Position numbers and translations under genes: made by a program
Notes under the pieces: model-generated
The model's database searches: none
Seen by the model: only the letters and a program-made list of their open reading frames with translations
What the model was told of the DNA's origin: nothing
NCBI RefSeq assembly: GCF_003334305.1
Contig: NZ_QOWS01000048.1
Origin: Escherichia coli
GTDB lineage: Bacteria; Pseudomonadota; Gammaproteobacteria; Enterobacterales; Enterobacteriaceae
Reading direction: 5' to 3' (one strand)
Length of the DNA: 7,079 nt
Part shown: piece after piece, positions 2,588-7,079 of the stretch
How positions within the stretch are numbered: the stretch's first letter is position 1
How the letters are laid out: the number at the start of each line of letters is the position of its first letter

Positions 2588-3307
2588 TTATTGGGTTAAA
2601 AGATAATGTTTACCGACACGATTTTCGTACCATTTTATTCCGGCACGAACGAGTGACGCCGTTGAGTCAATATAGCGGGAAGGCTGCTCTTTAACGGCTT
2701 GCGCCAGAATAACCGGAATTTCTGTACAACCAAGAACAAGGATTTCTGCACCGCGAGAAAATAATATTTCAGCCTGCTCATTCATCAACTTTTGTGCGTG
2801 CGCTATATTGCCAGCTTTCAAGGAATAAATACTTTCCATCACTTTTTTCTGACCGTCGGCATCGGGGCTGACACAGGTAAATCCCAGCGACTCAATTCCT
2901 TTTTGGTATAAACCCATATATAGCGTGGCATTGGTGGCTAACAAGCCAATTCGGGTTTTACCACAGGCGCGAACTTCATTGATCGTAGTTTCTACGATAC
3001 TTAATATATCAATATGACAAGCATCTTTTAATTCTTTGAACCAGTAATGCGCGGTATTACAGGGAATAACAATACATTCTGCCCCGGCATCTTCCAGCTT
3101 ATGCATATAATCACGCATAACGGGTAATGGTGAACGCCCATGATGCATTAATGCATCGGTACGGTCAGGAATATCCGGGATCGAAGAAATAATTAAAGGA
3201 ATATGTTCCTGATCACATTGTGCAGCGGTAAAAGTTACAAATTTATTAAACAGGTCGACGGTAGCTGCCGGCCCCATTCCACCGAGTACACCAATTAAAC
3301 CTTTCAC
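2588..3307 (-). CDS. Asp/Glu racemase-family enzyme, aspartate-racemase-like (239 aa; GTG start)
   Basis: Signature motifs of PLP-independent two-cysteine amino-acid racemases: GVLGGMGP near the N-terminus, IVIPCNTAHYW (first catalytic Cys) and LVLGCTEIPV (second catalytic Cys). Start codon is GTG at 3305-3307 with a GAGG Shine-Dalgarno ~10 nt upstream; an in-frame stop lies 4 codons further upstream. Only 65 bp separate it from the downstream Dcu gene on the same strand, with no terminator seen, so the two are probably co-transcribed. Confidence 0.85.
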   Translation of the reverse strand: MKGLIGVLGGMGPAATVDLFNKFVTFTAAQCDQEHIPLIISSIPDIPDRTDALMHHGRSPLPVMRDYMHKLEDAGAECIVIPCNTAHYWFKELKDACHIDILSIVETTINEVRACGKTRIGLLATNATLYMGLYQKGIESLGFTCVSPDADGQKKVMESIYSLKAGNIAHAQKLMNEQAEILFSRGAEILVLGCTEIPVILAQAVKEQPSRYIDSTASLVRAGIKWYENRVGKHYLLTQ

Positions 3308-3651
3308 AATACCTGCCTCTCAAAACGTTAATGACAATACGCGGTAAATAACTGCTGCTCTCTTTTTTAACAGTCGAAATGGGCGATGAGAAATGCAAGG
3401 TTGTACAAGGCGATGCAAGACACGCATGATGCAGCTATGGAACATTCCGCTTATTCACCATAGTGATGATGTATTCTGGTTATCTGACGGAAAAATTTCG
3501 TTTTTTTGGCGAAATGTGATATCAACGTCAATACCGGAAATGAAGGGGTTATGCACAAAACGAATGATAAAGGCCAGGTTGTGCTAATTGAGAACATTAT
3601 TTTTATTGCCGGGATGTTTTATTATGTCTTTGGATTGAAAATACAGGTGCC
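3308..3651. promoter_or_regulatory. Divergent promoter/operator region between the racemase-Dcu operon and the LysR gene
   Basis: 344-bp non-coding gap between divergent start codons. Contains three 10-bp-phased direct repeats (atgcaagg 3393-3400, gtacaagg 3403-3410, atgcaaga 3413-3420), an overlapping ATGC-N7-GCAT dyad (3413-3427) and a TCAC-N4-GTGA dyad (3455-3466) with LysR-type T-N11-A spacing. Confidence 0.5.
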
Positions 3652-4596
3652 ATGGTAATGAAGAATATCGAGACAAAATGGTTATACGATTTCCTGACAC
3701 TGGAAGCCTGTCGCCATTTTTCTCAGGCGGCAAAAGAGCGTAATCTTTCGCAACCCGCATTCAGCCGACGAATTAAGGCGCTGGAGGCAGCGATCGGCGT
3801 TGTTTTATTCGATCGCACGACCACCCCTTTACAATTAACCGAAGAGGGCAAGCTCTTTCATTCCCAGACTCGCAGCTTATTACAGCAGCTTGAATGCAAT
3901 TTGGGGGAGTTAAACGGCCAGAGTTTACTCGGCGTTCCCAACATTAAAATTGCAGCCGCGCACTCACTATCCCTGAGCGTATTACCCAAACTGGTGCATT
4001 CACTTACCGCCTATGGCGGAGAATTTGTCTATCATGTTGAAGCCATTGATGTTGTCCAGGCCGTAAATACGTTACGCGAAGGCAAGAGTGACTTTATTAT
4101 TTCGTTTCGCGATGAAGATCTTATGCAATCGCCTTTTTGCTGCCTGAAACTGTTTGAATCTGAGTTGTACCCGGTATGTGCCGCCGACGCACAGGGGCAC
4201 CCTGTATTCGATATCACTCAGCCCCAGGTTCCTTTGCTCAACTATACCGCCACATCTTATATGGGCAGGTTGGTCAATCGTCATCTGGCAGAGGTTGGAG
4301 GTATTACCGGGCGCACGATATTTATCTCTTCGATGAGCGAGTTATTAAAGAATATGGCGCTCAACGGATACGGCATTGCCTGGTTACCGATCTGGTCGAT
4401 CGTCGATGAACTACAGACCAAACGTCTGATATGCCTTGATGCTGCTAAATTGACAGTCCCCATTCAGGCTTATATTTACCGAATGAACACCCGACTGAAT
4501 AGAACCGCCGAGAACCTCTGGCGTATTTTACAGGAACATATGCCAGACGATTTAATCCAGCAGATATCAATGGAAGAGCCAGCATGCCGCAATTGA
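3652..4596 (+). CDS. LysR-family transcriptional regulator (LTTR), YjiE/HypT-like; true start more likely the ATG at 3658
   Basis: N-terminal winged-HTH region (...LEACRHFSQAAKERNLSQPAFSRRIKALEAAIGVVLFDR...) followed by a LysR-type substrate-binding domain. The N-terminus resembles what I recall of E. coli YjiE (...NIETKWLYDFLTLE...). An AGGTG Shine-Dalgarno at 3645-3649 sits 8 nt before the ATG at 3658 but only 2 nt before the ATG at 3652. Confidence 0.9.
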   Translation: MVMKNIETKWLYDFLTLEACRHFSQAAKERNLSQPAFSRRIKALEAAIGVVLFDRTTTPLQLTEEGKLFHSQTRSLLQQLECNLGELNGQSLLGVPNIKIAAAHSLSLSVLPKLVHSLTAYGGEFVYHVEAIDVVQAVNTLREGKSDFIISFRDEDLMQSPFCCLKLFESELYPVCAADAQGHPVFDITQPQVPLLNYTATSYMGRLVNRHLAEVGGITGRTIFISSMSELLKNMALNGYGIAWLPIWSIVDELQTKRLICLDAAKLTVPIQAYIYRMNTRLNRTAENLWRILQEHMPDDLIQQISMEEPACRN

Positions 4597-4713: not shown

Positions 4714-5173
4714 TTACTTACGGTCCGTAAACGGGCTGCCCGGACAGGGAATCGATAACTGCTCTCCCATTTTATCCTCTTCAAGCTGGTGCTTTATGTA
4801 ATCCTGTATCTTCGCCGTGTTCTTACCCACTGTATCGACGTAGTCCCCCCTGCACCAGAACTCCCTGTTCCTGTATTTGAATTTCAAATCACCAAACTGC
4901 TCGTAAAGCATCAGACTGCTTTTCCCTTTCAGATATCCCATAAACCCGGATACGCTCATTTTGGGCGGGATCTCCACAAGCATATGGATATGATCTGCAC
5001 AGCATTCAGCTTCCAGAATCCGTACGCTTTTCCACTCACACAGCTTTCTCAAAATACTGCCTGTTGCTCTACGCTTCTCTCTGTAGAACACCTGTCTTCG
5101 GTATTTTGGCGCAAAAAACTATGTGATATTTACAGTTCCATCGGGTGTGCGCTAAGCTCTTTTCGTTCCCCAT
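4714..5173 (-). pseudogene. tnpA: IS200 transposase tnpA (Y1/HuH), apparently frameshifted
   Basis: ATG at 5173 (minus) opens MGNEKSLAHTRWNCKYHIVF, then the frame changes at a T6 run (plus A6 at 5113-5118). The remainder ...FAPKYRRQVFYREKRRATGSILRKLCEWKSVRILEAECCADHIHMLVEIPPKMS...FWCRGDYVDTVGKNTAKIQDYIKHQLEEDKMGEQLSIPCPGSPFTDRK* is in another frame (six-frame ORF 4714-5091). The intact IS200 TnpA as I recall it reads through ...KYHIVFAPKYRRQ..., so this copy appears to carry one extra T. Confidence 0.75.
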
Positions 5174-5344: not shown

Positions 5345-5942
5345 GTATAAGGCTTAGCCTAACTTGCGTCTGTTGCATGGTGCCGGGTGCCTCCCGGTGA
5401 ATTCAGTCGGTGTCACTGAACCCGCGTAGGCTTCGCTCATAACATAATAAATGCTATGTACACCAGTCGCCCCACCGCACAGGGGGATTCACCACACGGC
5501 GCACTTTTTAACAAATATCCCTCCGGCCAGACAATAATAAACATAATGAATTGTGATCTTCTTAACAGTTTTAAAGTGTTACAGATAACATGCCAAGTAA
5601 TTGCTTGTTTTTTCATCAATAGGAAGACCACACCAACAACCCCAGCTATCAGCCAGAACCGACATTATCCGGCTGATAAAATCTACCATCACTCCAACAC
5701 CAATCACCGCCTGTGCCAGATCGCGTTTCTCAAACTTTTTAATCTCTGTTGCCACTCTGCGGGTTTTCTTTTTGAATTTTGAAAATACCAAATATCGTGA
5801 CGTTTCTTTGGGGGATGAGCTATCAAGCGGGAACGATCTGCCTACAGAGAAAGTCAGCCAGACCACTCTGCAAATTATCCCCGAAAGGCTCTGTGGCTGA
5901 TATGCGCCGGGCATGGCGCAATGGGCCAGTGGCAGTGTGTGA

Positions 5943-6015
5943 TGGTGGCCCTTACTGGATTTGAACCAGCGACCAAGCGATTATGAGTCCTCTTACCACT
6001 GAGCTAAAGGGTTGG
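5943..6015 (-). tRNA. Degenerate tRNA(CAU)-like sequence resembling tRNA-Ile2 (ileX/ileY-like); probable pseudogene or attachment-site relic
   Basis: Minus strand reads AACCCTTTAGCTCAGTGGTAAGAGGACTCATAATCGCTTGGTCGCTGGTTCAAATCCAGTAAGGGCCACCA. The T-arm, variable loop, CTCATAA anticodon loop (CAT) and 3' acceptor-CCA are recognisable and resemble E. coli tRNA-Ile2 as I recall it. However ~5 nt are missing at the D-stem/anticodon-stem junction, and the first two acceptor-stem positions (AA instead of GG) cannot pair with the 3' strand. Confidence 0.55.
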
Positions 6016-6279
6016 AGAACGCAATATCACCTGTCTTATATGATTACACCCAGAATTTCCCGGACTGTCTTGTCAAAACATTCAGTCTCCAATTCCCACC
6101 AATAGCAAGACGGTCACTATGACAGCATCTCCGGAATGAGCTCAGGGCACGGGGGTTTACCGAGGTTACTTTTCCAACGAAGTTTCTCAAACGCAGGCGT
6201 GACAGATAACATTCAAACTTAGGATCTCAGTTGCTATCTTTTCCCATGTCTTACGGATTAATGTCATCGGTTGCATACA

Positions 6280-6657
6280 AATCGCTACAAGCTGCATCAA
6301 GGCACATGCTTCATATGTACAGTACACCAAGATGGATAGGTGTTTCACCTAATCCTAGCTCATTTCAGGCAGGCTCAACAGGCTGCAGCCCGCATGTTTA
6401 AGGGCGCAGGTTATCAGCAGGTTATAAGCTGACCGGATACATTCCGGCAAAGAAAAACCTTGCAGCGATGAAAGCCGTTTCGGTAATGCAATGACGATAA
6501 AGCTGTCCTGTATATATGTGCTTCGCCTCAAACGCTTGCCGTTTTGGTATTGTGCACATGCCGTCTGAACGATGTGGAGCCAGAAAAATGGATGCGTTAT
6601 GTCATTGAGCATATCTAGGACTGGCCGGCAAACCGGGTACACGATCTGTTGCTCTAA
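6280..6657 (+). pseudogene. IS66-family transposase (TnpC) C-terminal remnant, degraded
   Basis: Frame-1 translation 6487-6657 gives ...AVLVLCTCRLNDVEPEKWMRYVIEHI*DWPANRVHDLLL*, which resembles the conserved IS66 TnpC C-terminus (...LIGTCKLNDVDPE.YLRHVL..IADWPVNRVSELLPW) as I recall it, but with an in-frame TAG at 6616-6618. Upstream similarity (e.g. CIKAHA at ~6290-6307, where CWAHARRK would be expected) is weak and needs frame changes. Possible element terminus GCGCTTAC at 6756-6763 or 6704-6711 (reverse complement GTAAGCG...). Confidence 0.45.
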
Positions 6658-6788
6658 ATAGTTGAGCTGGCCTCTCAGTAAATATCAATACGGTTTTGGT
6701 GAGCCGCTTACCACTGAAGCATCACTTCGGCAGGTAGATTTCTGCAGGCAGAATGGCGCTTACCTTAGCGATAAGCGCGTAAATGTGG

Positions 6789-7079
6789 TTATTCAATACC
6801 TGTGGTGACTGTAAAAGTGCGCGTTTGCTGCGGTGCAACCTGAATCAGCGTGCCATTACGTTGCGCGGCAAGATACCCCTCAGGTCGACAGGTTGCTGGT
6901 AATGCAAAGGCGGCTACCTGTTGCTCGCCGTTATAAAGGATCCAGCGTGTCACATAATTTAGTTCAGCACTGGAGAAACGAGTAACAAACGTAGTGCCAT
7001 CGGGAGCGATCATGCGAAACTCTGGCTGATCTGTGTAAGCGTCCAGTTTGTCTGCAAAGAAGACTATTTCTGGATCATA
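6789..7079 (-). CDS. 3' end of a protein-coding gene of unknown function (C-terminal 96 aa; continues beyond the window)
   Basis: Minus-strand frame is open from the window edge at 7079 to TAA at 6789-6791: YDPEIVFFADKLDAYTDQPEFRMIAPDGTTFVTRFSSAELNYVTRWILYNGEQQVAAFALPATCRPEGYLAAQRNGTLIQVAPQQTRTFTVTTGIE*. The six-frame ORF 6789-7013 is its internal-ATG-limited part. I recognise no family. Confidence 0.5.
   Translation of the reverse strand, partial: YDPEIVFFADKLDAYTDQPEFRMIAPDGTTFVTRFSSAELNYVTRWILYNGEQQVAAFALPATCRPEGYLAAQRNGTLIQVAPQQTRTFTVTTGIE

Follow-up and report, generated by a model that had tools for sequence, protein, structure and literature searches.

The interval 6554–6711 of the analysed window (the whole stretch of 7,079 nucleotides from Escherichia coli contig NZ_QOWS01000048.1) is very probably the dead right-hand stub of an ISCro1-like insertion sequence of the IS66 family. 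The relic is 158 bp long, lies on the plus strand and corresponds to positions 2542–2699 of the 2,699-bp ISCro1. It is composed of the tail of tnpC (6556–6681), a pseudogene fragment with the last 41 codons (TnpC residues 483–523) and the natural stop codon TAA at 6679–6681, and of the 30-bp non-coding right end of the element (6682–6711) with its right terminal inverted repeat (IRR), as delimited by alignment to four other copies (L002, L007, L008, and L009). The name ISCro1-like is taken from the PGAP labels of the matching copies and not from ISfinder. Relics of this kind are known and ordinary, and the stub is of low interest in itself. The sequence-only reading of this DNA had proposed an IS66-family transposase remnant of about 480 bp at 6280–6763; the family assignment stands, whereas the real size is 158 bp, and about two thirds of the proposed interval derive from two unrelated mobile elements.

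Comparison of the intact ISCro1 (L002, 960–3658) with the locus by blastn returned a single significant match, which covers positions 2542–2699 of the element with 88.6% identity (E 7.5e-55). Thousands of annotated IS66/ISCro1 copies match 6554–6711 with 88–92% identity (blastn, E 1e-49 to 5e-57). A sensitive blastn search of 5,426 complete E. coli genomes with 6100–6790 as the query matched 6554–6711/6719 to ISCro1/IS66 transposase genes (88–90% identity, E ~1e-50), which are labelled “IS66-like element ISCro1 family transposase” or “IS66 family transposase”. In the plasmid collection, at least 80% of 6554–6711 is covered in 1,829 records, and the nearest plasmid relatives, from Salmonella Poona, E. 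albertii, and E. coli, are 91.8% identical across all 158 bases. At the protein level, residues 483–524 of the intact ISCro1 TnpC match 6556–6681 (tblastn, 79% identity, E 3e-16), and the Pfam family PF13817 (DDE_Tnp_IS66_C) was recognized with a value of 2.3e-11 in a translation where the internal TAG was replaced with Q and which was cut ahead of the second stop. The frame that begins at 6487 translates as CNDDKAVLYICASPQTLAVLVLCTCRLNDVEPEKWMRYVIEHI*DWPANRVHDLLL*I; the TnpC block within it reads ...TCRLNDVEPEKWMRYVIEHI*DWPANRVHDLLL*, of which the TCRLN...DLLL part is IS66-derived. NCBIfam gave no relevant match for the 56-aa translation or for two overlapping ORFs, as models built for whole proteins require more sequence than this fragment offers.

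The surrounding locus was represented by a 15-kb record from the chromosome of E. coli CFSAN061761 (L001; the window coordinate equals the locus coordinate minus 1101), which, like many other strains, is 100% identical to the window over 5900–7079. The stub amounts to 5.9% of the element: the IS has lost its left 2,541 bp, and with them tnpA, tnpB, TnpC residues 1–482 including the DDE core, and IRL. Searches with the ISCro1 DNA and all three of its proteins revealed no other IS66 material in the window or the 15-kb locus. Specifically, the DDE catalytic domain (TnpC 1–482) has no counterpart in either of them, and no IRL homology was found in either; TnpA and TnpB gave tblastn matches at chance level in the window (best E 0.41–0.95) and none in L001; and the three proteins produced no further match at E<=0.01 across the surrounding 15 kb. 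The weak, frame-shifted TnpC similarity formerly suspected upstream of the stub is absent, as no tblastn match of TnpA, TnpB, or TnpC reaches E<0.4 elsewhere in the window.

Aligning the window jointly with L002, L004, and L006 places the left breakpoint at 6552–6554. Here tnpC, cut within its coding sequence, is fused to the interior of an unrelated integrative-element sequence, with a microhomology of no more than about 1 base. Since L004 and L006 still match each other past 6552/6554, the junction is not a natural element end but a probable deletion breakpoint. Alternatively, the IS might have been split by an insertion of foreign DNA, namely the block of gpA and integrative-element sequence described below, with its left part surviving farther off. 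The locus is indeed a mosaic of inserted elements, and other strains have an ISEc8 insertion 119 bp upstream of the left boundary of the relic; however, no other IS66 sequence is present in the window or within ~7 kb on either side, and the breakpoint adjoins an internal point of the integrative-element sequence rather than an element end, so that we regard such a split as very unlikely.

The sequence to the left of the stub has other origins than IS66. On the minus strand, 6096–6396 is a relic of the P2-type replication endonuclease gpA (residues ~173–275 of 805), with stops and a frameshift. Its segment 6131–6391 is 78% identical, with indels, to the gene of an 805-aa “replication endonuclease” in a P2-like prophage (L003; blastn), and the gpA protein matches 6096–6396 with E-values of 1e-7 to 4e-8 (tblastn). 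In PHROG this protein belongs to phrog_91, “nicking at origin of replication”, whereas PGAP labels 6120–6310 of the relic only as a frameshifted, partial “hypothetical protein”. Positions 6280–6396, earlier counted as part of the IS66 remnant, are thus a piece of the gpA relic on the opposite strand, by blastn as well as tblastn. The following 174 bp (6379–6552, no strand assigned) are a fragment of a small integrative element present in several E. coli (L004, L006, and L012), where an unannotated stretch 75–81% identical to it (3001–3177, 3000–3174, and 3501–3676, respectively) is flanked by an “integrase domain-containing protein” gene and higA, next to T6SS genes. No ORF within 6379–6552 is conserved among the window, L004, and L006, and neither PHROG nor Rfam gave a match for this fragment; a non-coding region with a regulatory or attachment-type role is conceivable. 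With regard to the TnpC block that had been proposed at 6487–6657, the block is true IS66 TnpC, but the DNA homology begins at 6554 and not at 6487, and 6487–6553 matches the spacer of the integrative element (75–81% identity, through 6552).

Terminal inverted repeats of the IS66 family start with 5'-GTAAGCG, and we confirmed this start on the intact ISCro1 copies examined. The intact copy in L002 (960–3658), which carries tnpA, tnpB, and tnpC, has an IRL beginning GTAACCGGCTCA and an IRR ending GAGTCGCTTAC, and is flanked by an 8-bp duplication, GCTGAAGT. In the relic, the IRR tip ...GAGCCGCTTAC (reverse complement GTAAGCGGCTC) ends at 6711, with CGCTTAC at 6705–6711; the sequence GTAAGCG occurs in the window only at 7035, within the epimerase gene. 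Four independent copies, intact or partial (L002, L007, L008, and L009), were used for the comparison of right ends: all of them align with the relic as far as 6711, and immediately beyond this base their flanks are unrelated. As all four diverge just past CGCTTAC, the terminus proposed at 6704–6711 is correct. The alternative terminus at 6756–6763 is not an IS end; the sequence from 6756 onward is common to an IS66-free context and forms a hairpin. This hairpin (6756–6778, minus strand; 9-bp stem, fold energy −14.1 kcal/mol, z −3.2) starts 10 nt past the stop codon of the aldose-1-epimerase-family gene, contains the second CGCTTAC (6757–6763) as one of its arms, and also follows this epimerase gene in strain 83972 (L005), where there is no IS66 stub. 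It is not called as a terminator, because it has no T-tract and hence is not a canonical intrinsic terminator. The intervening 6712–6755 has no match above the shuffle level in the loci compared, apart from L009, where the score is marginal (34, with a null maximum of 27).

These data also bear on the reading of the site as a larger IS66 remnant, extending over about 6280–6763, with frame-shifted TnpC upstream of 6487 and possibly with its end at 6756–6763. In its favor, the frame is open from 6487 and contains “AVLY”, which in TnpC is found just upstream of TCRLN, and there is the second CGCTTAC at 6757–6763; however, no DNA or protein similarity to ISCro1 exists to the left of 6554, where 6379–6552 matches another element up to the breakpoint and 6096–6396 is gpA on the opposite strand, and on the right every independent IS copy ends at 6711, while 6756 onward is the hairpin-forming sequence of the IS66-free context, which makes a remnant of this size extremely unlikely. 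Finally, there is virtually no chance that the motif match is a coincidence and that nothing at the site is transposon-derived: the lack of an NCBIfam match for the 56-aa translation and of RefSeq/PGAP annotation for the stretch has to be set against the blastn (E 5e-57), tblastn (3e-16), and Pfam (2.3e-11) matches and a collinearity that extends across the non-coding IRR to the exact tip of the element.

The target duplication of IS66 is 8 bp long (PMC6778807, citing Machida 1984). The right flank of the stub reads CACTGAAGCATCAC... and includes the stretch CACTGAAGCATCACTTCGG; the 8 bp that flank the IRR, CACTGAAG (6712–6719, plus strand), are the putative right copy of the target duplication. 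The stub has a right flank only and no left end, and no second copy of CACTGAAG was found in the window; elsewhere in the 15-kb locus there is one copy, 6.2 kb off, with ~0.5 expected by chance. The left copy was presumably lost together with the left end. Among species-representative genomes, searched with the IRR/flank junction and the 6712–6755 flank, neither an empty site nor an intact occupant was found.

Two further sequence similarities were observed at the right end. The octamer CACTGAAG at 6712–6719 and the duplication GCTGAAGT at 3659–3666 of L002 have CTGAAG in common, although its distance from the IS tip differs by one base; the resemblance could be accidental or could hint at a target preference, and it is not shared by the flanks of L007, L008, and L009. 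Also, a 14-nt direct repeat, CC(T/G)CTTACCACTGA, occurs at 5989–6002, in the D-arm region of the tRNA relic, and at 6704–6717, across the IRR/flank junction. We considered it as a meaningful link between the two sites and judged it a chance match, because the invariant IS tip accounts for 5 of its bases and 8 such short-repeat families are present in 1.2 kb.

Codon-by-codon comparison with the four relatives demonstrates two premature stops in the tnpC tail. The first, TAG at 6616–6618, replaces CAG (Gln503 of TnpC) through a private substitution at 6616; the second, TAA at 6655–6657, replaces TGG (Trp516) and results from two private substitutions, at 6656 and 6657. Farther on, TAA at 6679–6681, the natural stop, is still in place. 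The in-frame TAG had already been reported from the sequence, and rightly so, but as the only one; the second stop was missed, and it seems that TAA 6655–6657 was taken for the natural stop, which is in fact TAA 6679–6681. In total, the 158 bp of the relic contain 12 private substitutions, whereas the four relatives are 97–99% identical to each other. Over 42 codons compared with L008/L009 there are 9 non-synonymous changes, with the stops among them, and 1 synonymous change, which argues for neutral decay by unconstrained drift. Part of this divergence could have come from an unsampled source element and not from decay in place, since the nearest intact relative that we found is only 91.8% identical.

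The stub is the last in a series of decayed mobile sequences. In L001, the PGAP annotation runs from an IS1 pseudogene (its tail at window ~1–183) and a partial IS600 of the IS3 family (199–981) to genes for an anaerobic C4-dicarboxylate transporter, cuyB, and hypT, followed by a frameshifted IS200 tnpA (4714–5173), a partial DUF3927 gene, and the frameshifted partial “hypothetical protein” (6120–6310, minus strand), and then, on the right, by the aldose-1-epimerase-family gene (6789 onward, minus strand), fucP, rbsK, and a DeoR regulator. No feature is annotated by RefSeq/PGAP at 6311–6788, the IS66 stub included. A degenerate tRNA with a CAU anticodon lies on the minus strand at 5946–6013 (Rfam 30.7 bits, gathering score 29); its anticodon stem has lost 5 nt, its acceptor pairs are mismatched, and it may resemble E. 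coli ileX/ileY (tRNA-Ile2). ARAGORN called no tRNA, this relic included. The IS66 remnant does lie near the tRNA relic, as had been noted, at a separation of roughly 540 bp, and its description as the fourth decaying IS family in the window agrees with the IS1, IS600, and IS200 pseudogenes that PGAP annotates in the identical genome. Thus, the decayed mobile DNA comprises, in this order, IS1, IS600, IS200, the tRNA relic, the P2 gpA relic, the integrative-element fragment, and the IS66 stub, and this stack lies at the edge of a sugar-utilisation island with the aldose-1-epimerase, fucP, rbsK, and deoR genes.

The stub together with its right flank (6640–7079 at a minimum of 99% identity) is carried by ~282 of the 5,426 complete E. 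coli genomes, and in the same search ~1,350 further genomes share the epimerase gene only from 6785 rightwards. NZ_CP042903 is one example of a carrier. In the one genome inspected among the non-carriers of this second group, strain 83972 (L005), the upstream sequence differs: it includes another transposase fragment and lacks an IS66 stub; in a more sensitive alignment, the homology of the window with this strain begins at 6756. E. coli O104:H4 2011C-3493 shares with the window a left context that includes the dcu transporter, racemase, hypT, IS200, DUF3927, the tRNA relic, and part of the gpA relic. This context ends at window 6266 (L010 4163) and is followed by an IS21 istA pseudogene and a protein kinase/PP2C phosphatase pair, therefore the site is a variable island junction. 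In N1024 (L011, 1560–4000), a full-length ISEc8 of ~2.44 kb with tnpA, tnpB, and tnpC is inserted at window 6427–6435, in the orientation opposite to that of the stub and 119 bp upstream of its left boundary. The insertion duplicates ~8 bp (9 overlapping bases by BLAST) and apparently also exists in a fairly large set of genomes whose match to the window starts only at 6427 and continues rightwards; ISEc8 is not present in this window. The ~8% private divergence of the stub, as compared with at least 99% identity among its carriers, suggests that the island carried the stub in an already decayed state before it spread.

We infer a deletion and the following order of events. An intact ISCro1-like element would have inserted via TnpC-catalysed transposition, producing an 8-bp target duplication with CACTGAAG as the right copy. 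A later illegitimate deletion, with no obvious microhomology, would have removed the left 2,541 bp, the left copy of the duplication, and neighbouring DNA, and thereby fused tnpC at codon ~482/483 to the unrelated integrative-element fragment. The stub would afterwards have drifted neutrally.

Having no transposase, no tnpA/tnpB, and a single end, the stub cannot transpose. It has no evident function. A promoter/terminator scan of 6000–7079 found none, and the adjacent gene converges on the stub, which does not suggest a regulatory role. Neither the stub nor a 95-aa antisense ORF at 6355–6642 is expected to yield a stable product. We consider it very doubtful that the IRR and the tnpC tail serve live IS66 elements as a landing pad or as a partner in recombination, which could happen by binding of TnpC in trans or by homologous recombination. 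If true, this would help to explain both the ISEc8 insertion 119 bp upstream and the rearrangement of the island edge between lineages; however, only one ISEc8 insertion site was observed, apparently inherited clonally, and there is no positive sign of targeting.

In E. coli it is quite usual for island edges to contain truncated IS relics, and the biological weight of this stub is slight. It is, nevertheless, a 158-bp feature that is left unannotated by RefSeq/PGAP in about 280 complete genomes, and the interval flagged at the outset consists of three unrelated relics placed end to end, namely P2 gpA, the integrative-element fragment, and the IS66 end. Together they document repeated mobile-element traffic and deletion beside a degenerate tRNA where a sugar-utilisation island has its border.

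General features of the IS66 family are given by Han et al. (2001) and Gourbeyre et al. (2010). Compared with the ISCro1-like elements of the E. coli S1-IVC-02-A chromosome, the Salmonella Poona plasmid pATCCBAA1673_01, and the E. albertii plasmid pEA17_1, the stub is collinear with the last 158 bp at 88.6–91.8% identity and has in common with them the C-terminal TnpC peptide TCRLNxVEPEKW.RYVIEHIQDWPANRV.DLLPWKVDL.SQ, the natural stop, and the IRR tip GAGCCGCTTAC. Unlike ISCro1, it has no tnpA, tnpB, TnpC residues 1–482, or IRL, and it contains two premature stops and 12 private substitutions. ISEc8 resembles the relic in that it belongs to the IS66 family and occurs at the same locus. Its insertion shows the roughly 8-bp duplication typical of the family, but it is a separate, recent, and full-length insertion; because PGAP labels the matches of the relic as ISCro1 family, ISEc8 is not its source. 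The IS1, IS600, and IS200 relics of the same locus show a like decay, with truncation, frameshifts, and internal stops in the island-edge zone; these relics are annotated whereas the IS66 stub is not, since the latter is too short for PGAP. Judged by its sequence, the stub would not count as an intact member of the IS66 family, the DDE core, tnpA/tnpB, and IRL being absent, but as a derivative of it, with the TnpC C-terminal homology and the IRR present.
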